Source: Candidatus Scalindua sp.
GTDB taxonomy: Bacteria > Planctomycetota > Brocadiia > Brocadiales > Scalinduaceae
DNA: 32,000 nt
Reading direction: 5' to 3'
NCBI GenBank assembly: GCA_031316235.1
Contig: JALDRA010000001.1
Location: forward strand, 4,050,001-4,082,000
Shown here: one piece after another, positions 2,058 to 15,944 of the stretch
Layout: every line of letters starts with the position of its first letter
Numbering within the stretch: the first letter of the stretch is position 1
The notes under the pieces: model-generated
What the model was told of the DNA's origin: nothing
Databases searched by the model: none
What the model saw: the letters and a program-made list of their open reading frames with translations, nothing else
Position numbers and translations under genes: made by a program

Positions 2058-2861
2058 CTATGCATACCCCTTCATCCAGCGGGTCATCCACCAGCCCTCT
2101 CCCCTTTCCCCGGCAACAACCTCTTTCGCCAGATTCATATAGTCCTTATTACCGCTGCTTTCCGGGGCGTATAAGGTTATAGGCTGACCGGAAATCGGAC
2201 ACTCTGCAAGTTTTGTGCTTTCCCTTATCAGAGATTTAAACAGTTTATGGCTGAAATTATGCCTGATCCTGGCGACGACCTCGTTACTGAGATTCGTTCT
2301 GATATCGAACATACAGGCTACAATACCGGTTATTTCGAGGTCGGGATTCAGCGTGTCTTTAACGAGATTAACTGTGTTGATCAAGGTAACGAGTCCATTG
2401 AGAGCCAATACCTTGGTTTCTAACGGTATCACAACCTCACGGGCTGCCGTCAACGCATTCAGGGTAAGTATCCCCAGTGAAGGAGGGCAGTCAAAGAGCA
2501 CATAATCATAACAATCGGCAACCAGAGTCAATCTCTCTTTCAGGACAGTATCCCTATCGTCCCTGTTCAGGAGAGTCCTTTCTACAGAAGCCAGTGTAAC
2601 ATTGGAGGGAGCAACCCAGAGATCCTTTACACAGGTTTCCTGGATTATTTCTTTCAGCGGTAACTCATCATTGAATACATTGGACATGGATTTACTCAGC
2701 TCATTAATCCTTATGCCAAGCCAGGAGCTCATGTTTCCCTGAGGATCAAGATCAATCAAGAGAACCCGCCTGCCCAGCTTTGCTATACAGGCTCCGAGAT
2801 TAACTGCTGTTGTTGTTTTTGCGACACCACCTTTTTGATTCGTTATTGCTATTATCCGCAT
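2058..2861 (-). CDS. ParA/Soj-family P-loop ATPase (orphan; no parB nearby)
   Basis: Deviant Walker A ITNQKGGVAKTTT, LLIDLDPQGN, FDCPPSLG. There is no ParB-like gene in the window. Confidence 0.85.
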   Translation of the reverse strand: MRIIAITNQKGGVAKTTTAVNLGACIAKLGRRVLLIDLDPQGNMSSWLGIRINELSKSMSNVFNDELPLKEIIQETCVKDLWVAPSNVTLASVERTLLNRDDRDTVLKERLTLVADCYDYVLFDCPPSLGILTLNALTAAREVVIPLETKVLALNGLVTLINTVNLVKDTLNPDLEITGIVACMFDIRTNLSNEVVARIRHNFSHKLFKSLIRESTKLAECPISGQPITLYAPESSGNKDYMNLAKEVVAGERGEGWWMTRWMKGYA

Positions 2862-2864
2862 GAA

Positions 2865-3008
2865 ATATACTCATTTTATAAGGGTTTTCGGATACAATCC
2901 GAGAAAAAAACGGAGCGAGTAAAGTCCCTGACACCTATTGTCCGGGGATACTATTAACCAGGCTTTGGTTTTTAGAAAAATCTGAAACCAGATCGGTTTC
3001 AGTCTACT
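2865..3008 (+). repeat. Intergenic modular repeat, copy C (long form L+M+R)
   Basis: tatactcattttataagggttttcggatacaatccgagaaaaaaacggagcgagtaaagtcc...gtccggggatac...aaccaggctttggttt...aaaccagatcggttt. Aligns with copies at 3743, 6604, 9727, 10016, 12726 and 15858. Fills essentially the whole trkA-parA spacer. Confidence 0.85.
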
Positions 3009-3013
3009 CTCAG

Positions 3014-3706
3014 TTATTCAAACTGTTTTTCAAACATTTCAATATCTTTACTTTTACCAACTACAACCAAAACGTCTTTTTCTCTCAATACATAATCCGG
3101 CGTTGGTAGTTTTTTCATCTCTTTTTCAAAAATCAGGCCATCTTTGCCACTCTTCTGCTTTACTTTTTCCATGATCATGATGACGTCAACATGGTATTTC
3201 GATTTAATATCGAGCTCTTTAAACATTTTTCCTGTGAATTCTCCCTTTACCTCAATCTCCGCCAGATTGCAGTCTGCACCAAGCTCGATATATTCCAGCA
3301 CTCCCGGTTCCAGGATGCTGTTGGCAACTCGTAACCCCATATCCTCTTCAGGAAAGACAATCCTTGTAGCACCTACTTCCTTCAAGATCTGGGCATGTAA
3401 TCTTGAACTCGCTCGAGAAACGATCTCTTGAATCCCCAGATTCTTAAGAAGAGTGGTAGTCATGATGTTGGACTCTATATCTTCACCGATACACACAACA
3501 GCAACATCTACAACTTGAATGCCGCTTTCTCTCAGTGCTTCCTCATCAGTGCTGTCAAACTGTAAAGCCTCTGTAACCATATCCCTGACCTTTTCCACCA
3601 GCATATGATTTTTATCAATAGCGATAACCTGTGCCTTTTTCTGTGTCAGGGTTTCAGCTACCTTGAAACCAAACCTTCCCAGACCAATTACGGCAAACTG
3701 TCTCAT
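3014..3706 (-). CDS. trkA: K+ uptake regulatory subunit TrkA/KtrA (RCK N+C domains)
   Basis: N-terminal Rossmann motif AVIGLGRFG, about 230 aa, TrkA-N plus TrkA-C layout. Lies immediately downstream of trkH. Confidence 0.85.
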   Translation of the reverse strand: MRQFAVIGLGRFGFKVAETLTQKKAQVIAIDKNHMLVEKVRDMVTEALQFDSTDEEALRESGIQVVDVAVVCIGEDIESNIMTTTLLKNLGIQEIVSRASSRLHAQILKEVGATRIVFPEEDMGLRVANSILEPGVLEYIELGADCNLAEIEVKGEFTGKMFKELDIKSKYHVDVIMIMEKVKQKSGKDGLIFEKEMKKLPTPDYVLREKDVLVVVGKSKDIEMFEKQFE

Positions 3707-3742
3707 TTAAAAGATTACTCCCTTCGGTCTCCTGTCCAATAA

Positions 3743-3858
3743 TATACTCATCTCATACTGGATTTCGGATAAAATCCGAGATAAAATTGAGCGAGTATAC
3801 CTTCACCAGGATCTGGTTTCCGGTAAAACCGGAAACCAGATCGGTTTTAGTATATCTG
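3743..3858 (+). repeat. Intergenic modular repeat, copy A (short form L+R with perfect hairpin)
   Basis: Nearly identical to copy B (6604-6720). Contains hairpin tcggat-aaa-atccga and a perfect 15-bp stem/3-nt loop at 3810-3842. Ends in agtatatctg. Confidence 0.9.
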
Positions 3859-3870
3859 TTCTGCAGTAAA

Positions 3871-5214
3871 TCACCCAACAACTATTCTCTCTACCGGTAA
3901 CCTGATCTTTCTATCCGCAGACTTCCTCGCAATGATTAATGCCAGGGTCAATGGACCTGTTCTTCCAATAAAAATCAACATGCACACCAACATTTTCCCT
4001 CCCGCAGAAAGGTTGGGTGTTAATCCACAACTAAGACCCACGGTTCCAAACGCTGAAAACACTTCAAAGATGATAACCTCAAAGGGGGCATGTTCAGTAT
4101 GAAGTAAAACCATACTGAACAGTGTAACCGTCAAGAGAGAAATTGTTAAGATGGAGACTGCTTTGAGTACCGTTCGTTTAGGGACAGTGCGTCCAAATAT
4201 TTCCATATCATCTCTCCCTCGAATAAGATTGTAAACAAGGATTACGATTACAAAGAGTGTGCTTGTTTTGATCCCCCCTGCAGTAGAACCGGGCGAGCCG
4301 CCGATAAACATGAAAAAGATAAAATACAGAATCGTTGCTGAAGAAAGGTCACCGACATTGACCATGGTAAATCCCGCCGTTCTTGTAGTAACAGATTGAA
4401 ATAGTGAGACAAAGATCTTATCCTTAACTGATAAGGAAGACAATGTATGCTCATACTCTAATGTGAAAAAGAGAATTGCACCCAATATAATTAATATTCC
4501 TGTTGTGGTCAACACTATCTTGGTGTGAAGATTAAGCTTCCTTTTCCTGCTTCCATCCGGATACGGTATCAGAAAATTCACCATATTAATTAAAACGACA
4601 AATCCTATCCCTCCCAGAATAATGAGGAACACAATTGAGAGGTTTACGACGAGGTCAGCACGGTAAGGAACCATGCTTTCACTCGTAAGTGAGAAACCTG
4701 CATTGCAGAAAGCACTTATCGAGTGAAACAGTGCATAGAATAAGTATTCTCCAGGTGATTCACCGGACCAGTGGATGGCAAGAACAGCTGTCCCGATCCC
4801 CTCAATAACGAACGTCGATATTACAATGAATAAGACGGTTCTTTTTATTCCACCGCTATACTCGACGTCAAATACACCCTTTATGGCAACCTGTTCAGAA
4901 ATTAAAAGCTTTTTACCGATAGCAATACTGAGGAAAACGTAAGCGGTCATGATACCCAATCCGCCAAACTGGATGAGTACAAGTATGACAATATGGCCGA
5001 ATCGAGAAAAGTAGAGTAATGTGTCCTGTACAACCAGGCCGGTTACACAGACCGCGGAAGTAGAGGTAAAAAGAGCATCAATAAACGAGGTACCTCTCCC
5101 ATCAGTTGTAGCAGGCGGCAGCATAAGCAGTGCCGTACCAATGGAGATGAAGGTAATGAAACTGACAACAATGGTCATACCAGGCTTCGATGTAAAATTT
5201 TTCATTATCTTCAT
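3871..5214 (-). CDS. trkH: K+ transporter membrane subunit TrkH/KtrB
   Basis: Polytopic membrane protein with DALFTSTSAVCVTGL, FGGLGI, CNAGF and GGSPGSTAGGIKT selectivity-filter-like repeats. The track ORF extends to a TTG at 5373. The ATG at 5214 (MKIMKNF...) gives a typical length, but the start is uncertain. Confidence 0.85.
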   Translation of the reverse strand: MKIMKNFTSKPGMTIVVSFITFISIGTALLMLPPATTDGRGTSFIDALFTSTSAVCVTGLVVQDTLLYFSRFGHIVILVLIQFGGLGIMTAYVFLSIAIGKKLLISEQVAIKGVFDVEYSGGIKRTVLFIVISTFVIEGIGTAVLAIHWSGESPGEYLFYALFHSISAFCNAGFSLTSESMVPYRADLVVNLSIVFLIILGGIGFVVLINMVNFLIPYPDGSRKRKLNLHTKIVLTTTGILIILGAILFFTLEYEHTLSSLSVKDKIFVSLFQSVTTRTAGFTMVNVGDLSSATILYFIFFMFIGGSPGSTAGGIKTSTLFVIVILVYNLIRGRDDMEIFGRTVPKRTVLKAVSILTISLLTVTLFSMVLLHTEHAPFEVIIFEVFSAFGTVGLSCGLTPNLSAGGKMLVCMLIFIGRTGPLTLALIIARKSADRKIRLPVERIVVG

Positions 5215-5478
5215 CTGCTGTGTGAAAATAGCACCTGGTCCTGATAGTAAATGATTAAAAAAAATTATGGTGAATAGAGGATATAAAAAAACGGGTGGTA
5301 TCTCTTTGCTCGATGTGTCAGGCATAATCAGCGGTTGAACGGAGGCATGAAACCGATTTACCACAGCCTGCAATGTTTCATGGTATATGGCAGAGGAGAT
5401 GATACCGCACAGCTTTTAACTAGAGGTACTGCAATGAGAAAAACGAAAATTAAAGCAGATCTGCATAACAACTGATTA

Positions 5479-6552
5479 CTAGCTGAAAACCTTCCGGCCA
5501 ATCTTACGTTTCAGATTCATAACCATTTCCCGCACCATTAATTTTTTATCCTCCAATGCCTTGAGGTGAAATGGCAAAACACAGCCGCAGCGTTCACAGT
5601 CAGCCAGAGGACCCATCATACACGGCCGTTTCCTCTTCCCCTGGGGATCGAGGCAGAACGAGACTTGCCGAAAAAGGCAATCAGCAGTTACCTCTTTACA
5701 TTTCTCTGATTTCATCATCTCAAGCACATATCCCGGTACAGCAATAAAATCGCCATATTTCTCCTTGAGCGCCAGTAATTTATCGACTATACGGTCCCTT
5801 AATTCCCATCCCGGCCACAGTTCGTCATTATATTCTAATCCCTTTACCGGCGTGTGCATCTGAAAAAGGCACCCTTTTACGGAGGTGGTTGCCCAATCTT
5901 CAAGAAATCTTTCAATCCCCGTGTAGTTGATCTTGTTAACCACCATGGACACAATTATCTTTAAATCAGGTCTGTCTGCATTTTTCCTGATCTTGGCATA
6001 GCATCCTTTTCCCCGTATCTCATCGTGCATCTCCTCCGGCCCGTCGACGGCAATATAAAAATTAACATCCGGCCAATCAGGAAGCGGGATTGTACCATTC
6101 GTAGCAACCAGGTTTGATTTAAAATACTTCATGGTCCGTTCTATCAGGTCTTTACGCAAGAGAGGTTCCCCCCCTATCCAGGAACATTGATAAAACGGGA
6201 AGTCTGTCTCCTTCAACTCTTCAAGCTTATCAATCCATTCATCATCCGTCAGCTCTCTTTCCGCTTCGTAATCATGAGCATAAAAATAACAATGCTTGCA
6301 GCGGAGGTTGCACCTGTTCGTTATATCAAATGAACTGATGGCACCTTGCGGTTTTCCAAAGATATCAAATCTGCCAAGGTCGTACAGCTTGAAGAGGAAT
6401 TTTGTAGTCCCTCTTCCAATGGTATTTGACGAGATGTTAAAAAGTGAGTCGCGGAAAGTCTTCTTTGGGCCTGCATTGCTCCCACGTTTTGATCGCGGAT
6501 CGGAATCTATGGCTTTTTCAGACACGGTTTTTATTTTCATAACAGGTAACAA
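5479..6552 (-). CDS. Radical SAM enzyme with a C-terminal Cys-rich (SPASM/twitch-like) region, function unknown
   Basis: ITNRCNLRCKHCYF (CxxxCxxC), GGEPLL, and C-terminal C..(n)..CMMGPLADCERCGC. The 6552 start is a TTG; an ATG alternative lies at 6540. Confidence 0.75.
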   Translation of the reverse strand: MLPVMKIKTVSEKAIDSDPRSKRGSNAGPKKTFRDSLFNISSNTIGRGTTKFLFKLYDLGRFDIFGKPQGAISSFDITNRCNLRCKHCYFYAHDYEAERELTDDEWIDKLEELKETDFPFYQCSWIGGEPLLRKDLIERTMKYFKSNLVATNGTIPLPDWPDVNFYIAVDGPEEMHDEIRGKGCYAKIRKNADRPDLKIIVSMVVNKINYTGIERFLEDWATTSVKGCLFQMHTPVKGLEYNDELWPGWELRDRIVDKLLALKEKYGDFIAVPGYVLEMMKSEKCKEVTADCLFRQVSFCLDPQGKRKRPCMMGPLADCERCGCVLPFHLKALEDKKLMVREMVMNLKRKIGRKVFS

Positions 6553-6603
6553 TTAATCAGATAATCTATTAAAAAGCAACTAATAATTTACCAGTAATAT
6601 GAA

Positions 6604-6720
6604 ATATACTCATCTCATACTGGATTTCGGATAAAATCCGAGATAAAATTGAGCGAGTATACCTTCACCAAGATTTGGTTTCCAGAAACACCGAAAACCA
6701 AATCGGTTTTAGTATATCTG
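6604..6720 (+). repeat. Intergenic modular repeat, copy B (short form L+R)
   Basis: atatactcatctcatactggatttcggataaaatccgagataaaattgagcgagtataccttcacca... The first ~65 nt are identical to copy A. The hairpin arm carries a paired substitution relative to A. Confidence 0.9.
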
Positions 6721-6790
6721 ATAGAAAGTGGCTGTTATGGCTCTTTGCACGGATTTGCTTTTCCACCCATATAGCTCCATATTTTTTTAT

Positions 6791-6818
6791 TTGACATCAC
6801 TGTTTTTTGTGGTATAAA
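6791..6818 (+). promoter_or_regulatory. Near-consensus sigma-70-type promoter with no downstream annotated gene
   Basis: TTGACA (6791-6796), 16-nt spacer ending in TG-n, then TATAAA (6813-6818). It points into the 460-bp non-coding gap 6721-7179. Confidence 0.4.
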
Positions 6819-7179
6819 AAATAGAAAGGTGTGTATGGTGCTCTATCAGTTATGTTTTTAGCAAGTTTTGTTATAACATTCTTTTCCTTTTCAGCTCATA
6901 ACACTTTTAGGTAAAATCGGTAGCACGTGTTACCTTTTTCCTTAGCTGAACACGTATCAGGAGGATGTTCAGGGAGAAGGAGGAAAAGAGAGAAATTATA
7001 AAGTTTGTTCTAAATTTATTTCTTTTACAAAACCATGCACACCTTTATTTATCTACACGTATCCACTGCAGCAATCTCCTCTCACTGACATCACGTTACA
7101 AAGGGAGATATTCAAGTCCATTTCCTTTTCAGCTTCTAAAATAAGATGGCAATTTGCGGAAAAGCTCATGTGAAGAAAA

Positions 7180-8604
7180 TTATAATCCGACCTGTACCCG
7201 GTATCTGACCTTCAACTCTCCGTCTTTCGGCACGTCAACATCAAACCGGATCGTAAACGCATCGATCTTTTTGAATGGATGACTGTTATTGAGCACTTTC
7301 CAGTTTCCAAACAATGGCTCTATGATACCAATAGCGATGTCTTCTTCCTTGTGATTCCTCACGGTGACCTCCCACTCTGATTCATGGAGTCTTGACGTTC
7401 TCTGCGCATAATCTGTCTGTATCCTTTCGACGGTGACATCAAAGGCTTCACCGATTTCAAGCTTTACCTCTTCTTCTTTTGGGGTATGTTCTATTCTATC
7501 CTCACCAATAAATTGCAAGCTCCCCTCCTCGTCCTGTTTATACAACCGCATTATTCCCGCCGGAAGGGGTATCCCGAGACGGTTATCTCTGGTATTTTTG
7601 AATTTAATATTCACCGTTACCGCCTGTTTCAGATTTTGTCCCGGGTACTGTCTGGTAAAATAGCCTTTAATTCCAGAGACAAGAAGCTCTTTCTGAACCT
7701 TCGTGCCGGCAGCCTCTAAGAGGCGAATCTGCTTCTTCTGATTATCCTTGATGGTAGTCTTCCTCTGAAGATCATAGATATGGTATTCAAAGAAAGCCTT
7801 CTCTTTAAATTGCGGAGCATCAGCCATCACCATTTCTGCCGCCACATATCCCCGCCTCTCATCAAACTTCTCCCTGACACGATGCACATCACCAGCGATC
7901 AATTTAAGAGATGCATCTTTATACGTTGCACCACTTTCGTTATCGATGGTAACCCAGCCGGATAAATCTGCCGCTGTATCATTCATATTTAAGACAACAA
8001 CATAGTCTGCCTTCCAGCTGATATTATTCGTAAGGTAAGATACTTCGACATTATGACTCTCCTTCCCCCTGTTACTATAGATCCAGGTTAATGTCGGCTT
8101 TGCTATCAGGTTTTCCGGAATTTCCGGAAGGATCTTTATCCCCGGGTGGCCAAGAAAGATCTCATCCTTTATCTGAAATATCTGTCCACTGTTATTGCTC
8201 AGCAAAGAGGCCTCTACTACATCCTTTCTATCCTGATATTCATTCCACACAACTATCTTGATCTTTTTTCCCACATATTTGTCGAGCAGTTTATCCGCAC
8301 TCATCAAGTCATACTCGTAATTCTGCTCAAGAACAGAGAAGTTTTCCGGGTAATTGAGCGATTTCACGTGAACGGTTTCAGGCATAATGCTGGATGCCAC
8401 ATCCATGAACTTCAACTCACCTTCATCACCAGGGAGTGTTACCTGCCTGACATCCTTTATGAGGCTGAGATCACTGTTATATACGGTAACTTCAACGGAT
8501 TCCTGGTCAGCCAGAGAACTCTCAGTTACCGTATTTTCAGCAGCTGTCATGTTACATGAAAAAAACAAAAATATAGCCGCAATGATACAATTTTTTACGT
8601 TCAT
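7180..8604 (-). CDS. Secreted DUF4139/DUF4140-like (MuiA-family-like) protein
   Basis: Signal peptide MNVKNCIIAAIFLFFSCNMTAA. The N-terminal VEVTVYNSDLSLIKDVRQVTLPGDEGELKFMDVASSIMPETVHVKS matches my recollection of the DUF4140 pattern. About 470 aa, beta-rich. Confidence 0.6.
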   Translation of the reverse strand: MNVKNCIIAAIFLFFSCNMTAAENTVTESSLADQESVEVTVYNSDLSLIKDVRQVTLPGDEGELKFMDVASSIMPETVHVKSLNYPENFSVLEQNYEYDLMSADKLLDKYVGKKIKIVVWNEYQDRKDVVEASLLSNNSGQIFQIKDEIFLGHPGIKILPEIPENLIAKPTLTWIYSNRGKESHNVEVSYLTNNISWKADYVVVLNMNDTAADLSGWVTIDNESGATYKDASLKLIAGDVHRVREKFDERRGYVAAEMVMADAPQFKEKAFFEYHIYDLQRKTTIKDNQKKQIRLLEAAGTKVQKELLVSGIKGYFTRQYPGQNLKQAVTVNIKFKNTRDNRLGIPLPAGIMRLYKQDEEGSLQFIGEDRIEHTPKEEEVKLEIGEAFDVTVERIQTDYAQRTSRLHESEWEVTVRNHKEEDIAIGIIEPLFGNWKVLNNSHPFKKIDAFTIRFDVDVPKDGELKVRYRVQVGL

Positions 8605-8728
8605 TTCTCCCCCTTATCCATAACTATTTATAGAAATATTCAGTCGTGTCCGCTCAGCTTTTCTGCATGTTTATTGATACTCATCTTATAATGGTTTTCC
8701 GATAAAAAAAATTGCCCGTATGCCGCAG

Positions 8729-9580
8729 TCATTTTGCCTTCAACATACTACGCAGAACGAGGCAGGACTCTTTCTTCGGCAACTTCAGTATTTCCCGATA
8801 GAGCGCAACCATTATGTGACAGAATTTTCTTTTATCTATCCCCGGCGCATGAGGATTTTCCAGGAGCAGTGCGTCATCACCATATGTTTCGTGAAGATTA
8901 ATAATGATGTTTTGTATGAAAGCATCATATTCCGGAAAATCCTGGATGTCCTCAGAAGCCTCTGCCCCGGTTCTTATCACGGAAGCTAATGCATCCAGAT
9001 CAGCTTGCTGTGTTTCCGGCTTGATATATTGTGTCACGTCAATGGTTCCGTACTGCTTCGGAAACAAAAACTTATAGCAAAGTTCAGGACTTTGATGGGC
9101 CAGCTCTTCAATTTCCAGGATTACCACATTCATGTAATCAAGCAATGCCTGATCAGAGGAGAGGGGAAGATACTTTTCCACCAATTCGCTGATAATGAAC
9201 CGGATTCGCTGAATAATTTGAGATTGACTCTCCCCTTTTATCACTGATTTCCGGATCTCATCCTTTATACGTTGATACGTTTCCGCATCATACATTGATA
9301 TCTGCTTGTAAGCGGGGATTTCAGCCAGAGATACTTCCAGAGCATTGAGAAATTTCTCTGTTTTTTCAGCCTGAGATACTTCCAGAGCATTGAGAGGTTT
9401 CTCTCTTGTTGTTGTTGGCTTTATAATGAAACTCATTGTCGCATAACAAACTGCACAAGACGTAAAAAAAACAATTGTATAGAGCCCCCACCTCTCTTTG
9501 GGTTTCCGTACCACAAGAAATACAATCCCTGTTGCCAATGCTCCAAATGCCCCTGCAATCCCGGTAGATATCCAATCCAC
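8729..9580 (-). CDS. Hypothetical membrane-anchored protein (two N-terminal TM helices)
   Basis: 283-aa ORF with TM segments GIAGAFGALATGIVFLVV and LYTIVFFTSCAVCYATMSFII. Internal 15-aa duplication. No recognised catalytic motif. Confidence 0.55.
   Translation of the reverse strand: MDWISTGIAGAFGALATGIVFLVVRKPKERWGLYTIVFFTSCAVCYATMSFIIKPTTTREKPLNALEVSQAEKTEKFLNALEVSLAEIPAYKQISMYDAETYQRIKDEIRKSVIKGESQSQIIQRIRFIISELVEKYLPLSSDQALLDYMNVVILEIEELAHQSPELCYKFLFPKQYGTIDVTQYIKPETQQADLDALASVIRTGAEASEDIQDFPEYDAFIQNIIINLHETYGDDALLLENPHAPGIDKRKFCHIMVALYREILKLPKKESCLVLRSMLKAK
9321..9410 (-). repeat. In-frame 45-bp tandem duplication (2 units) inside the 283-aa ORF
   Basis: Units 9321-9365 and 9366-9410 share tcagcc.gagatacttccagagcattgaga..tttctct. 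They encode EKPLNALEVSQAEKT / EKFLNALEVSLAEIP. Confidence 0.8.
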
Positions 9581-9726
9581 TATACCCCTCCTGTCTCTTC
9601 TTTTTATAAAAAAGTATCTCTTGATAAATTTACAAAATCAACCATCCGAACGCTGTATCAGTAAAGACATGAAATTTATGATCATAATAACTGCATTCAT
9701 GATCCGTTGCGGCTGCAGAGCCATGA

Positions 9727-9894
9727 ATATATTAAAACCGATCTGGTTTTATATTTTTCTACAAACCAAAGGCTGGTTAGCGGTATCCCCGGACAAAAAC
9801 CGCCGAGGACTTTCCCCGGACCAGGCGCCGAGGACTTAACTCACTCATTCTTATCTCGGATTTTATCCGAAAACTCTTATGATACGGGTATATA
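9727..9894 (-). repeat. Intergenic modular repeat, copy D (L+M+M+R, M module duplicated)
   Basis: atatattaaaaccgatctggtttt...ggtatccccggacaaaaaccgccgaggactt|tccccggaccaggcgccgaggactt aactcactc...tctcggattttatccgaaaac...gggtatata. Confidence 0.85.
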
Positions 9895-10015
9895 AGCCAA
9901 TATGTGCAGTTGGATTATAATACAATATTTCTCATTTGTAAATGCACAGTTCTTTGATTTATTGCATCCTGCACCCAGACGTTATTCAGGCGGGAATCAA
10001 CCTGGCAGGTCAAAC

Positions 10016-10130
10016 ATATACGAAACCAGATCTTGGTGAAGGTATCCCCGGACAAAAAGCGCCGAGGACTTTACTCGCTCAATGTTATCTCGGATTTTAT
10101 CCGAAATCCAGTATGAGATGAGTATATCTG
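10016..10130 (-). repeat. Intergenic modular repeat, copy E (L+M+half R)
   Basis: atatacgaaaccagatcttggtgaaggtatccccggacaaaaagcgccgaggactttactcgctcaatgttatctcggattttatccgaaatccagtatgagatgagtatatctg. Confidence 0.88.
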
Positions 10131-10370
10131 CTTTATAAGAATGAAAACCCTGTGTCTGAACCAGAACTGCCCAGGTACAAGGCGCGAAATAATTACGTAA
10201 CCTGAGCGTACTCCAGTGCTTGAGGGTAACGTCATTATTGCAGCAACGATGTAGATGGGTAGTTTTCGTGCAAATACTATTTAATTGAAATAACCGGGTT
10301 ATCCTGTATCATGTCTCTTTTGTCCATATCTCAATAAAGAGAAAAGCATAGCGGACTTTCAAGGCTCCAG

Positions 10371-11177
10371 ATGGAAAAAAATGAAAAACGAGAGCTGTTC
10401 ATCATAAATGGCAGAACATTTACCGTATATAAATATGCCAGACTTGACTCAACGAATACGTTCCTGAGACAACGCTGCATGGAGCTGGAGGAGTATTCAG
10501 TCGTCTGGGCAGAAGAACAGACAAAGGGAAGAGGGCGTTTCGATCGGGTCTGGTATTCCAGCCCGGGAAAGGACCTTACAATTTCAATTCTGCTGCCTCT
10601 TGATCCCCAGGTGGTAAAGTACAGGCAGAATATCACACAGATTACAGCCCTGGCGGTGGCCAGGCTATTGGAACATTACGGATTGAAACCAGATCTGAAA
10701 TGGCCGAATGATGTGCTGGTAAATAATGGGAAAATATGCGGCATACTCTGTGAAATAGTTGAAACCGGAGAGAAAACATACGCTGTTCTCGGAATAGGCC
10801 TCAACGTAAACAGTACTTACAGCACCTCGCCGTATTATGACTCTTTTATAACCTCAATACAAAAAGAGTTGAGATCAGCAGTAAATCGTCGTGAAGTACT
10901 TCAAAGACTCCTGACCTTAATCTGCAGGAGTTTTGATGAGCTTGGCAGAACAGGTTTCAGCCAGAGCAGAAAGGAGATAAAGAAGAGATTATTATTTGTC
11001 CGTGACAGGATTGTCATCAGGGATGGAACAAAAAATTCACATTCGGGGAAGATCCTGGATCTCAACCATGATGGGTCACTCCTCTTTCAATGCGAGGAGT
11101 GTAATATTATCAATATCAATTCCGGAGAGATAACGTTTCGTATTAATTCGGTTAACGATCGCTTTCATGATCAGTAG
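10371..11177 (+). CDS. birA: Biotin--[acetyl-CoA-carboxylase] ligase, group I (no N-terminal HTH)
   Basis: GRGRFDRVWYSSPGKDL (GRGRxGRxWxSPxG motif), KWPNDV..NGKK.CGIL, 268 aa. The only confident plus-strand gene. Confidence 0.88.
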   Translation: MEKNEKRELFIINGRTFTVYKYARLDSTNTFLRQRCMELEEYSVVWAEEQTKGRGRFDRVWYSSPGKDLTISILLPLDPQVVKYRQNITQITALAVARLLEHYGLKPDLKWPNDVLVNNGKICGILCEIVETGEKTYAVLGIGLNVNSTYSTSPYYDSFITSIQKELRSAVNRREVLQRLLTLICRSFDELGRTGFSQSRKEIKKRLLFVRDRIVIRDGTKNSHSGKILDLNHDGSLLFQCEECNIININSGEITFRINSVNDRFHDQ

Positions 11178-11239
11178 TAGAATTGTGTCTGTGGTATAAT
11201 TTTCATGGAGGTGTCATTTTCATGGTAGTATCGGTCATC

Positions 11240-11272
11240 TATACGAAAACTACTATGAGATGAGTATATCTG
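11240..11272 (-). repeat. Intergenic modular repeat, copy H (minimal / terminal fragment)
   Basis: tatacgaaaactactatgagatgagtatatctg matches the L-module terminus of copy E (ccgaaatccagtatgagatgagtatatctg). Confidence 0.6.
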
Positions 11273-11386
11273 TTAAACCGTTTGCTCATTATGCTATCAT
11301 TCTGCACTTCGCAATGCTTTCCCGCATGATGCGCATCGGCTCAACAGTATATTACTCAAAAAGTGCATTTTCATCTGATGAATCCA

Positions 11387-12358
11387 TTAATTTGTCGCAA
11401 TTATAAGAAATTTCACATACCAGAAATTTCTCGGATCTTTAATATTTATTACAGATACATTATCCTCATAATATACATCATAATACTCTTTGTCTCGATA
11501 GGGCAATATTGCCTTAATTTTACCACTCATTCTGTATATGGTTTTTGTTTTTTTCTCTTGTTTAAATTTAGACGAACTGCAATTCGGACCCAACGCATAG
11601 CTCTTACTGAATGGATTTAATTTGCTTATAATGGGAATACCTCTTTTTGCGACAATCCCCCTCTCTATCAATTCTTCACTATCACCAATTATATAGTAAA
11701 TTGTGTTGATTTCATCCTTCAGTGTAGTAATTTCCAACTCTTTCTTCGATAGTACCTGCTCTTTCGATACCAATTCATTTTTTAAATAACTTATTTTTGA
11801 ATTCTTCTCCTTTGCCAGCTCCGTATATGAGTTTATCTGGTTTGATAATTCGCCTTGTAAGTTTTCTAAATGAGCAATTTGACTTTTAAGGATATCAATA
11901 TTATTTTCCAGAGTATCAATTGTTGAGGTTTTTTCTTTAATAACTGCTTTCAAAGAAGATAACGATTCATTTGTCTGGTTATTGCTGTCTGCAAAAGAAT
12001 CAAGTTTCTTCTGCAATTCATCGGCTCTCTGTCTATGGATTTTCAGTGCATCGTAGAGCTCTTCTATGTCACTCAAAATCTCATCTTTTGCGCCAGCAGT
12101 TTTTTCTAAAGCATCTACATCAAATAATATCTGTTTCTTGTCATCGATTTTCAATTCAGTTTCGTGAATACTGTTTATCAGCGAGGTAACCGCATCGATC
12201 ACATCAGTGGTTGCTTCCAGACGGGTGCGTTGTTCCTGTAACTGCAAATGAGTGTTTTGTTTTTCATCTTCCAGCTCCTGAATCCTCTCTTTCATGTGTT
12301 CATTACCACATCCGAAAACACAAACAAGCATAATAGAGATTAATATTCGTTTGTTCAC
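11387..12358 (-). CDS. Coiled-coil lipoprotein (C-terminal domain reminiscent of Cbp1-type adhesins)
   Basis: Lipobox MLVCVFGC, then ~190 aa of heptad-rich E/K/L/Q sequence. The C-terminal YYIIGDSEELIERGIV....IKDPRNFWYVKFLII resembles the Cbp1-family tail as I recall it. Confidence 0.6.
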   Translation of the reverse strand: MNKRILISIMLVCVFGCGNEHMKERIQELEDEKQNTHLQLQEQRTRLEATTDVIDAVTSLINSIHETELKIDDKKQILFDVDALEKTAGAKDEILSDIEELYDALKIHRQRADELQKKLDSFADSNNQTNESLSSLKAVIKEKTSTIDTLENNIDILKSQIAHLENLQGELSNQINSYTELAKEKNSKISYLKNELVSKEQVLSKKELEITTLKDEINTIYYIIGDSEELIERGIVAKRGIPIISKLNPFSKSYALGPNCSSSKFKQEKKTKTIYRMSGKIKAILPYRDKEYYDVYYEDNVSVINIKDPRNFWYVKFLIIATN

Positions 12359-12699
12359 AATATATCTTCTCCTTCTTATTTAAGATTGTTAGAAAACGTA
12401 TGAGAAATCATGTTCAGGACCCGGGGAAAAATTTGCCATTTGCTATAAAACATGGATAATCTACTCATTCAACTTTGAGTTGTAAAGAGAAAATGTATGT
12501 ATACTGCAGCGTCTGCAAAGATGTTTTCATGCACAATAAAAGGCAAATCAGGGGCTTGGAATACCTGAACCCGGAACATGCTCTCTCTGCTTTGCAGGCA
12601 GCAGGCTTTCTTTTACCTGGCTGCACAGACAGCACCGGAACAGGTAAGATACACTGATGGGTAATGGTAAATATACACTATTTGATGTTTGATATCCAG

Positions 12700-12739
12700 A
12701 ATTAAAGTATATCAAATCTTGATTTGATATACTTTAATT
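12700..12739. repeat. Perfect 19-bp inverted repeat with 2-nt spacer
   Basis: aattaaagtatatcaaatc tt gatttgatatactttaatt. Each arm contains the repeat-family terminus motif agtatatc. The right arm is the end of copy F. Confidence 0.9.
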
Positions 12740-12868
12740 GATCTGGTTTTAGCTTTTTCAAAACCCCAAAGCCTGGTTAACGGTATCCCCGGACAAAAAA
12801 CGCCGAGGACTTTACTCACTCAGTTTTTTCTCGAATTTTATCCGAAAACCAATATAAGATGAGCATAA
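12726..12868 (-). repeat. Intergenic modular repeat, copy F (long form L+M+R)
   Basis: gatatactttaattgatctggttttagctttttcaaaaccccaaagcctggttaacggtatccccggacaaaaaacgccgaggactttactcactcagttttttctcgaattttatccgaaaaccaatataagatgagcata. Confidence 0.85.
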
Positions 12869-12953
12869 CCTGCTTTAATCGGCAGCTTTTCCAGGCGCAG
12901 CTATGAAAGACACTTAGTCACTCAAGAGGTAGTTTCCTGATTTTTGCGTATTG

Positions 12954-13457
12954 TTAACAACTCTTTAATTCAAAATACCTCCTTAATCCCTTTTTCATAG
13001 ATTCAAAGGCGAATTGTTCGTATTGTATTTCCTCGCCTGCAATCCATTGTGTTGCGGCAATCTCATCACCAATCGTTATTCGGGGTATCTCCTTTAACTG
13101 GAGAGAGTAAAAGAGATCGAGGGTATGATATTCTACCGACTTATAAAGATAGACATTGGGAAACGATCCGAGGTAATGCATTTCTGTAACGGGAATTTCC
13201 ACCTCTTCAAATATTTCCCGTTTCAAAGCTGATTCTGCAGACTCATTCATGTCTACAAACCCTCCGGGAAGCCCCAGCATGCCTTTGCATGGTTCATATT
13301 TTCTGACACAGGTAAGTATCTGATTACGGCACTCAATTATGGCCGCAACAGAAGCGGCAATATTTTGAAAGTAGGTAAAACCGCAAGATTCACAGAAAAA
13401 TTCATTTGCCCTTACATTTTTAAACCTGTCAGCCCCACAGCGCAAACAATAATTCAT
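12954..13457 (-). CDS. Nudix hydrolase with N-terminal zinc ribbon (NudC-like architecture)
   Basis: Nudix box GGFVDMNESAESALKREIFEEVEI. N-terminal CLRCG...CESCG. Confidence 0.8.
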   Translation of the reverse strand: MNYCLRCGADRFKNVRANEFFCESCGFTYFQNIAASVAAIIECRNQILTCVRKYEPCKGMLGLPGGFVDMNESAESALKREIFEEVEIPVTEMHYLGSFPNVYLYKSVEYHTLDLFYSLQLKEIPRITIGDEIAATQWIAGEEIQYEQFAFESMKKGLRRYFELKSC

Positions 13458-13545
13458 TTCCTACTCCTGCTCACTTAATTCCGGTGCCGTTATGTGTTCA
13501 GTCCCTGTTCCTGTACTTATCAAGCACGTAGTTTTCTTCCAACCA

Positions 13546-14814
13546 CTACTTGAGAAGCGGTGTGTCAAAGACACCAAGTTTGCCGGCAACAAGCTGCTCC
13601 GAGATTCGGCGAAGATCGTCGAGAGATACCCTGCCCTGCTTCATCAGTTCACGGGTGACGTCATCGATAGTGTGCTTTTCTTTCGTCAGTTGTCGAATCT
13701 CCTTGTCCAGGTCCTGAAAAAGGATGAGGGCCCGGGCAGTAACCGGGCCTTTCGAATGTTCTACTCGAAGGGTTGTTACCTCACGACTCCATCTCTTCAG
13801 CCAGTTTCTCACCTTCTGGTAACGGGCTTCTGTCATACCCCCGGCACGATAGATAAGTTCGATTGAATAGAATTCAGCGATTCCTTCTGCAATCCAGTCA
13901 TCATTCATCTTTCCCTGGATGTGAGTAACAACATGCACCAGTTCATGCAGCACCGGGCTCGTCGAATTTTTGGACACAATAGCTCTGTCAGCGTGCAGGA
14001 AAAATGAGTTGGGAGCAGATAATCCACCCCGCCACATCGGATCTCCTGCACCTACAACGAGTAATTTACGAGGCATCTTCCCAAACGCAAGCTCAGCTTC
14101 ACGCCAGATGAAATTGAAAAAAGTCAGTATTTCCATCCGACTGAAACCGAATCCTACCGGTGCAGACACGCAGATTTCAGTACCCCCGATAAAATCCCGT
14201 CGTGTAACCACTTTGCCAGCAATCATCCAGCCCACCGGACGATCAAAAAGACGCTCCTGATTGTCCACCGTGAAACTTCCATCGGCCTTCCTGGGCCAAC
14301 CAGTATCCACATCAGTCCAGCCTTCCGGTAATACGAAGTGCAGTTTTGCTTGCAGGTTTGTACCCTTAACCAACTGCACTTTTACTGTTGGGATCAGATC
14401 GTCACCACGAAATATCGCCCAATCGGGTGTCATGAGTGCATCATACCTCCCGTTCTTTCTCTGATGATTCACTTTTACCGTCATGTTCAGAACTGCCGGT
14501 CCGTCTGGAGGTTCCCAGATTGCACGTTCTCCACCGATCCTGAGCCTGCCGTCTGCTTCAAGATCAGAGAATCGGTCTGACTTGATATGGAAATCAAGCC
14601 AACGCAACTGTGCCCCGTCTTCCAGGCGAATCGATACTTGAGCCATATCAAGATCCGGTTTAAGTGTAACGGTATAATCAACACGGCAGGATTGATCCGA
14701 AGCCGCAGCTATCGCAGCCACACCAAGCGTCCAGCACATCACCAGCAGGCATAAAATAAAAATCCCCTTCCCTTTACATAATTTCTCTTTTTGTAGTATC
14801 TCTGTGTTTATCAT
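13546..14814 (-). CDS. Secreted gluzincin-type zinc metalloprotease (M1/M61-like active site)
   Basis: Signal/anchor GIFILCLLVMCWTLGVAAIAAA. HELVH followed by WIAEGIAEFY, which parallels the HExxH...WLNEGFA.Y arrangement of M1-type gluzincins. Confidence 0.65.
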   Translation of the reverse strand: MINTEILQKEKLCKGKGIFILCLLVMCWTLGVAAIAAASDQSCRVDYTVTLKPDLDMAQVSIRLEDGAQLRWLDFHIKSDRFSDLEADGRLRIGGERAIWEPPDGPAVLNMTVKVNHQRKNGRYDALMTPDWAIFRGDDLIPTVKVQLVKGTNLQAKLHFVLPEGWTDVDTGWPRKADGSFTVDNQERLFDRPVGWMIAGKVVTRRDFIGGTEICVSAPVGFGFSRMEILTFFNFIWREAELAFGKMPRKLLVVGAGDPMWRGGLSAPNSFFLHADRAIVSKNSTSPVLHELVHVVTHIQGKMNDDWIAEGIAEFYSIELIYRAGGMTEARYQKVRNWLKRWSREVTTLRVEHSKGPVTARALILFQDLDKEIRQLTKEKHTIDDVTRELMKQGRVSLDDLRRISEQLVAGKLGVFDTPLLK

Positions 14815-14918
14815 TTTGTTGATAGAAAATCCGGCTCCTGAACGAAATACTTCCTGACCCGAACGAGCAGGAAAAGGATTCCAGGTTTACGATTCTCGCT
14901 TTTTTTTAACGAAGTCTA

Positions 14919-15524
14919 TTAAAATTTTTTAAATGTAAGCAGGTATTGGTCATAAAGAGTAGTTGGTTTGTCCTTAAGGTTAAAACCAGCTTCTGTCATT
15001 TCAACTATTACCTGCTCTTCAGAAACGGTACGACGTCCCTGGCCAAAACTCGGCGCCATATCGGCGATTGCAACAACAGTTTCTTCCTGAATAAAGGGAT
15101 AAACTTTTTCACGAAAGTATTGTACCGGCTTATCGAAATGAAAGTAAGTATAGCCGATAAAGAGCAGCTCAATTTCACAATTGAGCTGGTCAAGCCCCGG
15201 GTCTTCCTTTTCAATCTGATAAATGGATACATTAACTAAGGCATCTCTCCTTTTCCGCTCTTCAAGCCAGCAGATCAGCGACTTTTCCGAATCAAGCGCA
15301 ATGATTTTTCCTTCAGGCAGATGCCTGGAAAACAGGTCTGCAAAATACCCTGTCCCTGCACCGAGATCTACCACTGTCATTTCCGGCTGAATTAACAGCC
15401 TGGCCAGAATATCGGGCCTCTGCCACTGTGCCCGGTTCGTATCCATAACCGCGGCACAGAAGTTTGCATCGTCATAAGAAGGAATACAACCCTCGAAACG
15501 TCCTGTATCAGTATTTGTTTTCAT
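14919..15524 (-). CDS. Class I SAM-dependent methyltransferase
   Basis: Motif I VVDLGAGTGYFA, downstream acidic loop IIALDSE, 201 aa. Confidence 0.75.
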   Translation of the reverse strand: MKTNTDTGRFEGCIPSYDDANFCAAVMDTNRAQWQRPDILARLLIQPEMTVVDLGAGTGYFADLFSRHLPEGKIIALDSEKSLICWLEERKRRDALVNVSIYQIEKEDPGLDQLNCEIELLFIGYTYFHFDKPVQYFREKVYPFIQEETVVAIADMAPSFGQGRRTVSEEQVIVEMTEAGFNLKDKPTTLYDQYLLTFKKF

Positions 15525-15857
15525 TTCTCTCCAGCGCGGATAAATGAAAACTATCTATCTGCCGCGCTGCTGTAATAATGCTGTAATAATTACGCAATCC
15601 TCACCCTTATCCGTACTTCCCCTTTACGAAATTGCTGCTCGTCCTGCATCCTGACCAGAGATTACCGGCAACCAGCATAACCACCGATCCTGAGTACAAC
15701 GAATACCATGTAAGCAGCAGGGTAAATCATGAACTGCGATTGGTCAAATATTTTTATCAAGGTACTGCTTAAAAATGTATTAACATTAAACATCACTCTT
15801 GTCAAATTTTTTATTTACCAGTAAGAAACCTGACCCGTGGATCATGTTTCGTGTTGA

Positions 15858-15944
15858 CATACTCATCTTATACTGGATTTCGGATAAAATCCGAGAAAAA
15901 ACGGAGCGAGTCTACCAGCAACCAGACTTTGGTTTTAGTATATA
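15858..15944 (+). repeat. Intergenic modular repeat, copy G (L + half R)
   Basis: catactcatcttatactggatttcggataaaatccgagaaaaaacggagcgagtctaccagcaaccagactttggttttagtatata. Confidence 0.85.

Follow-up and report, generated by a model that had tools for sequence, protein, structure and literature searches.

A modular intergenic repeat family of Candidatus Scalindua, very probably a miniature transposable element that inserts at TA

The window analysed here, 32,000 nt of contig JALDRA010000001.1 of Candidatus Scalindua sp., contains one repeat family in nine places, as copies or fragments that lie in both orientations and always between genes. The repeats very probably represent a miniature inverted-repeat transposable element (MITE), which is a kind of non-autonomous DNA transposon, and one of the Correia/RUP type with BOX-like modularity. 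The family has been mobile, duplicates a TA on insertion, is bounded by terminal inverted repeats (TIRs), is present in high copy number with a strong bias to intergenic DNA, and has varied in place in the number of one internal module, M. An earlier note on this DNA had described a dispersed, non-coding and modular family of small repeats with neither a transposase close by nor a known name, and all of this holds; TA duplication and mobility go beyond that reading. Judged by searches of Rfam and the literature, the family appears to be previously undescribed, and no paper linking Scalindua with MITEs was found in the literature searched. Among bacterial selfish DNA it is of an ordinary sort, and it does not amount to a new kind of system. 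Coordinates are window positions unless they follow an L-number (L004, L123 and so on), which labels one of the related Scalindua loci that were compared with the window.

Target site, termini and distribution

Two independent comparisons of filled with empty sites show that a TA is the point of insertion and is duplicated in the process. The first is provided by a second repeat family, dozens of uninterrupted copies of which read ...CGCCTTG-TA-CCTGGGC..., whilst those in L007 and L013 have an L-R copy inside them (L and R being the two ends of the element) and read ...CCTTG-TA-(element of 112-113 nt)-TA-CCTGGGC.... The second is the spacer between trkA and parA, which in L124 and L125 is 13 nt long and reads CTGAGAG-TA-TACCATG, and which in the window, filled by copy A, reads CTGAGAG-TA-(element)-TA-TTTCATG. 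The syntenic spacer is empty, at 12-13 nt, in six relatives (L124, L125, L126, L131, L132 and L133), and among the loci compared only the window and L123 have copy A. Further insertions are lineage-specific, and the sets of insertions differ between species within the same syntenic region.

The core element is about 113 nt long and non-coding, has a consensus of 34% GC against about 40% for the loci, and has TACTCATCTC... and ...GGTTTTAGTA as its two ends. The block conserved in 121 distinct full copies starts with TATACTC and finishes with AGTATA, and the bases beyond it are variable; of 84 distinct copies, 79 have TA on either side. The outer cag...ctg that had been taken for the ends of the element is flanking DNA, as only the TA is conserved at the borders. 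The TIRs are 24 nt long and imperfect (TACTCATCTCATAATGGTTTTCGG against TACTAAAACCGATTTGGTTTTCGG), with 16 of 24 positions matching, namely the terminal TACT and TGGTTTTCGG, and these ends are conserved over the 121 copies. L has, near the left end, one copy of a 10-nt motif, TGGTTTYCRG; R has two inverted copies of it near the right end, where they form the R hairpin.

Scanning beyond the window, as the earlier note had suggested, brought up many further copies. When one genome per species was scanned for the L core in 8-kb blocks, at least 118 blocks matched, all of them, among the matches listed, from Ca. Scalindua metagenome-assembled genomes (MAGs); the carriers are SCAELEC01, RBC_AMX3, the Scalinduaceae MAG CBDCUS and OFTM1. 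The copies number at least 117 in SCAELEC01, at least 70 in RBC_AMX3 and at least seven in CBDCUS, with nine in the window. Hidden Markov models (HMMs) of the modules, with adjacent matches chained, gave 204 copies or fragments in 0.9 Mb of related loci, of which 59 have the architecture LR, 55 LMR and two LMMR, 30 are variants with extra internal sequence and the remainder are partial. The family was absent from 14-20 kb samples of more distant Scalindua lineages, S. japonica included, and is scarce in the JGI metagenome collection, where four contigs carry it; a BLAST search of plasmids with the consensus returned nothing. Copies are 94% identical to one another, which points to recent spread. 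Only five of the 204 lie in genes, though genes, crudely called, make up 64% of the DNA, and this near-confinement to spacers is probably due to selection, which would remove insertions in genes.

The properties of the family can be set beside the definition of a bacterial MITE as a small, non-coding and A+T-rich element with TIRs, a target duplication and stem-loop transcripts (PMC2229807). Size and copy number, TIRs, TA duplication, presence/absence polymorphism, A+T-richness and predicted stable stem-loops were all found here. In the mechanism proposed, the MITE inserts at TA and duplicates it, leaving copies that read TA-element-TA, and a transposase encoded elsewhere would act on it in trans by binding the TGGTTTYCRG motifs. 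This enzyme is likely to be of the IS630/Tc1-mariner DDE type, a suggestion drawn solely from the TA duplication, the TIRs and the precedent of RUP and IS630-Spn1. Any effects on neighbouring genes, such as hairpins in mRNA or the terminator-like R hairpin when read from L to R, would be incidental.

Modules, internal hairpins and nested elements

The two ends, L and R, each have a hairpin of their own in folding predictions, and the L stem-loop of roughly 58 nt that had been proposed is among those predicted. The third module, M, is a GC-rich hairpin of 27 nt located at ...GAGCGAGTA^TACC.... M was described as optional and sometimes duplicated, and this is borne out, except that the copy at 12726-12868, said to lack M, carries it; in the window M is missing from copies B, C, F and H and from fragment I (8677-8707). 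At the copy A locus there is one M in the window and two in the ortholog in L123, a 97% relative, and such a difference at a single locus implies that M changes in place after insertion. M is gained, lost or duplicated in place in the manner of boxB of the pneumococcal BOX elements, probably by slippage or recombination.

All eight of the sites listed in the earlier note were recovered by the repeat finder, which joined them through direct and inverted families, by MAFFT alignment, in which they share modules, and by the HMMs for L, M and R, which were built from the window copies. A ninth piece, the L-end fragment at 8677-8707 (+), has to be added. The 18-mer TTTCGGATAAAATCCGAG has seven matches in the window at up to three mismatches against 0.04 expected, and a 30-mer from M occurs three times against none expected. 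HMM matches in the window (nine for L, five for M and five for R) all lie left of 16 kb, so the right-hand 16 kb is empty of copies, as had been claimed; the claims that the copies lie in both orientations and always between genes also stand for the window. The genes around them are nuoABC, parA-like, trkA, trkH, radical-SAM, DUF4139, BPL/LplA, NUDIX, methyltransferase and uvrC genes.

With limits refined to take in the terminal TA, copy A (2866-3006, +) is an L-M-R copy with a diverged M that fills the trkA-parA spacer, its L end lying 4 nt upstream of the parA ATG. Its insertion point (window 2857-2870, compared with L124 10693-10710) is a TA between a Shine-Dalgarno-like CTGAGAG and that ATG, and the purine-rich stretch before the parA start in the window now comes from the end of the MITE (ATGAGTATATTTC-ATG). 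Copy B (3743-3854, +), an L-R copy between trkH and trkA, has a perfect 15-bp R hairpin; the arms of this hairpin read GATCTGG/CCAGATC in the window (3810-3842) and GATTTGG/CCAAATC in the ortholog (L123 3799-3913). Copy C (6605-6716, +), also L-R, lies upstream of the radical-SAM gene and has its ortholog at L123 937-1052. Copy D (9728-9892, -) is L-M-M-R, the first of its two M hairpins having a short loop. Copy G (12728-12867, -) is L-M-R and has the NUDIX gene on one side and a hypothetical gene on the other; its R terminus and 6 nt of flank form, as an inverted duplication, a near-perfect palindrome at 12695-12745 (AATTAAAGTATATCAAATC-aa-GATTTGATATACTTTAATT) that gives chance-level matches to microRNA (miRNA) models of Rfam.

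Two further copies, one of which (H) had been regarded as fragmentary, retain both termini and are internal-deletion derivatives, not simple truncations. Copy E (10017-10129, -) consists of L-M and an R with an internal deletion, ends in ...CTGGTTTCGTATA and abuts a copy of the second repeat family. Copy H (15858-15942, +) has L and an R without its hairpin (...TTTGGTTTTAGTATA), its left TA being mutated to CA; its deletion type is that of L004 5698. In both, as in the derivatives in L004 and L076, the deletion lies between repeated GGTTT motifs. The remaining pieces consist of the L end only: fragment F (about 11239-11268, -; HMM match E 7.8e-04) and fragment I (8677-8707, +; repeat families D5, I21 and I22; nhmmer E 6.6e-05), which is broken in the loop of the L hairpin. 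Solo L ends share this stopping point (...GGTTTTCGGATA, followed by unique sequence) both in these two fragments and at L063 5275, L010 7665, L065 6334, L046 3128, L036 6699 and L049 5879, which suggests a recurrent breakpoint in the L-hairpin loop.

In the related genomes there are further GC-rich hairpins, N, X1, X2 and X3 (67-81% GC), which sit inside the linker or inside the loops of hairpins; together with M they span 59-81% GC within a backbone of 34% GC. The variants range from 100 to 249 nt in length, the longest being L054 1137-1385 (249 nt). Nesting of X1-X3 or N is seen in the L loop at L048 4798, L101 2810 and L035 299 and in the R loop in L061, L085, L076, L118 and others, and the two loops share the same X1 unit, which TAAAAYC follows immediately in every case. 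The idea that M, N and X1-X3 form a dispersed family of their own was rejected, as they occur almost only inside this MITE.

M has itself been a target. An element of the IS110 family of insertion sequences (IS), 1.7 kb long and recognised by PF01548 and PF02371, is present at L066 4510-6209 and at L103 about 3236-4922, its transposase being frameshifted in both. The two insertions occupy one identical position in the M hairpins of two different MITE copies (...GTCCTCGGCGC / IS / TTTTGTCCGGGG; targets CGGACAAAAA / GCCGAGGACT), which suggests sequence-specific targeting of M by the element. Within the IS110/IS1111 group, IS621 and its relatives insert into REP sequences by means of a guide RNA. 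The fixed position in M is comparable, with the guide RNA here being putative; the difference is that the likeness lies with an element for which the MITE is a target, and not with the MITE itself. Guide-like complementarity between the M target and the non-coding ends of the element, of which the 3' one is 323 nt long, consisted of a single 7-mer rich in A, ACAAAAA at the right, with nothing longer, in a comparison that short split guides would escape; these ends gave no match in Rfam. Beside the IS-bearing MITE copy in L103, an open reading frame (ORF; 5121-5534, -) gave a match (PF14236, E 1.9e-14) to a fragment of DruA, a Druantia protein.

The second repeat family is MITE-like, unrelated to the first and about 157 nt long, with ends GTGTTTGAACGAAAAC...GTTTTCGTTCAGACAC and flanking direct 6-mers of the form TANNTA (TAAATA, TAGTTA, TATCTA and others). 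In 0.94 Mb nhmmer finds it 129 times, with 118 of these hits in SCAELEC01; the window has one copy at 10130-10288 (-) and a weak partial one at 15541-15648 (+), and other examples are L083 4152-4318 and L046 4422-4585. Composites in which an L-R copy sits at an internal TA of this second MITE occur at least five times in SCAELEC01, in a single relative orientation (L007 7480-7748; L013 6831-7099; L124 4977-5243, 5393-5663 and 7202-7471), and it seems that the nested composite has itself been amplified. A more elaborate proposal, which is possible yet rather doubtful, is that the repeats form a nested system of three layers. In this, GC-rich hairpins would be gained and lost by a loop-directed process separate from transposition, as the X1 unit common to the L and R loops would suggest, M would be the landing site of an IS110/IS1111-type and presumably RNA-guided IS, and the MITE-in-MITE composite would be amplified as a unit. 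If true, the loop-directed gain of modules would be an undescribed route by which small mobile elements diversify.

Related repeats and alternative explanations

The Correia (NEMIS) elements of Neisseria provide a close parallel. They are non-coding, measure about 100-155 bp, begin and end with TA, have TIRs of about 24-26 bp and duplicate a TA target; they are present in hundreds of intergenic copies, fall into size classes according to an internal segment and give transcripts with long stem-loops; and they too have no known cognate transposase (PMC2229807). In contrast, no sequence similarity was seen, the Scalindua host is an anammox member of the Planctomycetota, and its size classes arise from several small GC-rich hairpins (M, N and X1-X3) and not from one 50-bp segment. 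RUP of Streptococcus pneumoniae, which is mobilised by IS630-Spn1, resembles the family in its length of about 107 bp, its TIRs and its insertion at TA, and also in a high similarity between copies, which suggests that they spread recently, and in inserting into other mobile elements (PMC2229807), as the Scalindua copies do in the second MITE. However, RUP has a matching parent of the IS630 family, whereas none was found for the Scalindua family in the loci scanned. The likeness to the streptococcal BOX elements (boxA-boxB(n)-boxC) is one of architecture only. There, fixed end modules enclose a self-folding internal module that may be absent or repeated and that varies in number at orthologous loci (PMC3049150); here, M is present in zero, one or two copies, with one against two at the trkA-parA locus. 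M rarely exceeds two, though, and the several distinct hairpin modules are nested in loops and not arranged in tandem arrays. Homology to boxA, boxB and boxC is unlikely, judging by host and base composition.

Several points weigh against a MITE of this kind. A transposase with matching ends was found neither in the window, nor in the 0.9 Mb of related loci, nor in one metagenome scan. The last of these looked for the L-end TIR followed by bases other than those of the MITE and gave no matches, a weak null because only four contigs of that collection carry the element. The TIRs are imperfect, and the 2-bp TA duplication, though typical of IS630/Tc1-mariner elements, also occurs in some elements of the IS5 family (IS427 group). 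Lastly, the copy B orthologs differ by paired changes in the R hairpin, and the L stem has one compensated pair, both of which could be a sign that structure is under selection.

Candidates for an autonomous parent were considered and dismissed. L and R ends lying 1-4 kb apart are, at such a density of copies, nearly all chance pairs, and what looked like parent elements in L066 and L103 proved to be the IS110-family insertions in M. The neighbours of solo L or R ends are unique flanks, truncations and internal deletions, with no common IS interior. A screen of the 0.9 Mb of loci for multi-copy ORFs yielded no transposase family, and none was present among the genes of the window.

The stem-loops might indicate a quite different origin, in which the repeats are structured cis-regulatory RNAs (terminators, attenuators, mRNA stabilisers or small RNAs) under selection, so that their repetition reflects function and not mobility. 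The predicted folds are indeed very stable, with z scores against shuffles of -6.4 to -8.4 for the consensus and copy B whichever strand is folded, and of -4.5 to -8.4 when the L-to-R strand of copy A is included, whilst the reverse strand of copy A folds weakly (z -1.9). The R hairpin with GGTTTTAG, read from L to R, has a terminator-like score, copy A lies just upstream of the parA start codon, and the paired changes in R and L mentioned above would also fit. Against this, orientation relative to neighbouring genes in tandem gene contexts is unbiased (37 same, 35 opposite), copies are present or absent at orthologous sites, and some are nested within another repeat. RNAalifold gave a covariation term of only -0.2 kcal/mol for 37 L-R copies, with double changes in two of 29 pairs, a result that is uninformative either way because the copies are so similar; the paired difference in R is a single event, compatible with constraint on the putative inverted binding motifs or with conversion between copies. 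Searching Rfam, as had also been suggested, gave no matches at gathering thresholds and only chance matches to miRNA models at E up to 1. With covariation minimal, orientation random and Rfam empty, the RNA role raised in the earlier note is not supported as a function of the family as a whole, and an origin as regulatory RNAs is quite improbable, although side effects of particular copies on expression are possible.

Still less probable is that L, M and R are mosaic palindromic units of the REP/BIME type, spread by a RAYT (a Y1 enzyme, IS200/IS605-like). REP, BIME and REPIN sequences are likewise intergenic, palindromic and mosaic, and the hairpin units, variable make-up and strictly intergenic location of the Scalindua repeats fit such an origin. 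However, REPs are associated with RAYTs and lack TIR-bounded units and target duplications (PMC2817692), and the Scalindua family has both of the latter. Its unit has fixed ends and is about 113 nt long, with TIRs and a TA duplication, in place of a palindrome of 20-40 nt without target duplication; nor was there a multi-copy transposase-like ORF near the copies, in a survey that included no search aimed at RAYT/Y1 genes. The likeness to BOX, BIME and Correia elements that had been pointed out can thus be kept for a Correia/RUP-type MITE with a BOX-like internal module, and dropped for REP/BIME, since target duplication and TIRs are present.

The least credible of the alternatives is that the IS110-family element left the repeats behind as by-products, or uses them as attachment sites, and that its recombinase generated or spread them. 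The shared position in the M hairpins of L066 and L103 is what speaks for it. Yet the element is carried by two of more than 200 copies, it interrupts M and does not have L and R as its own ends, and copies without M are as common as those with it; the match to M that a guide might use goes no further than ACAAAAA, with nothing in Rfam, and the TA duplication and TIRs point to a mechanism of the DDE type.

Consequences and a further repeat in the window

Together with the second family, this one, with at least 117 copies in one MAG, occupies many of the intergenic spacers of some Scalindua genomes. Such copies can break or confuse short-read assembly and binning, and the lineage-specific insertions could be used for strain typing. 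Operon spacers can also be altered, as where copy A lies between the original ribosome-binding sequence and the parA start codon. The family adds to the known bacterial repeats a TA-duplicating MITE from the Planctomycetota that combines ends of the Correia/RUP type with BOX-like modularity and is itself the target of an IS110-family element.

One other repeat in the window lies within a gene. Two tandem 45-nt units, 89% alike, are found at 9319-9408, inside an ORF for a hypothetical membrane protein of 283 amino acids (8729-9580, -), where they encode a duplicated stretch of 15 residues (...LNALEVSQAEK / ...LNALEVSLAEI).

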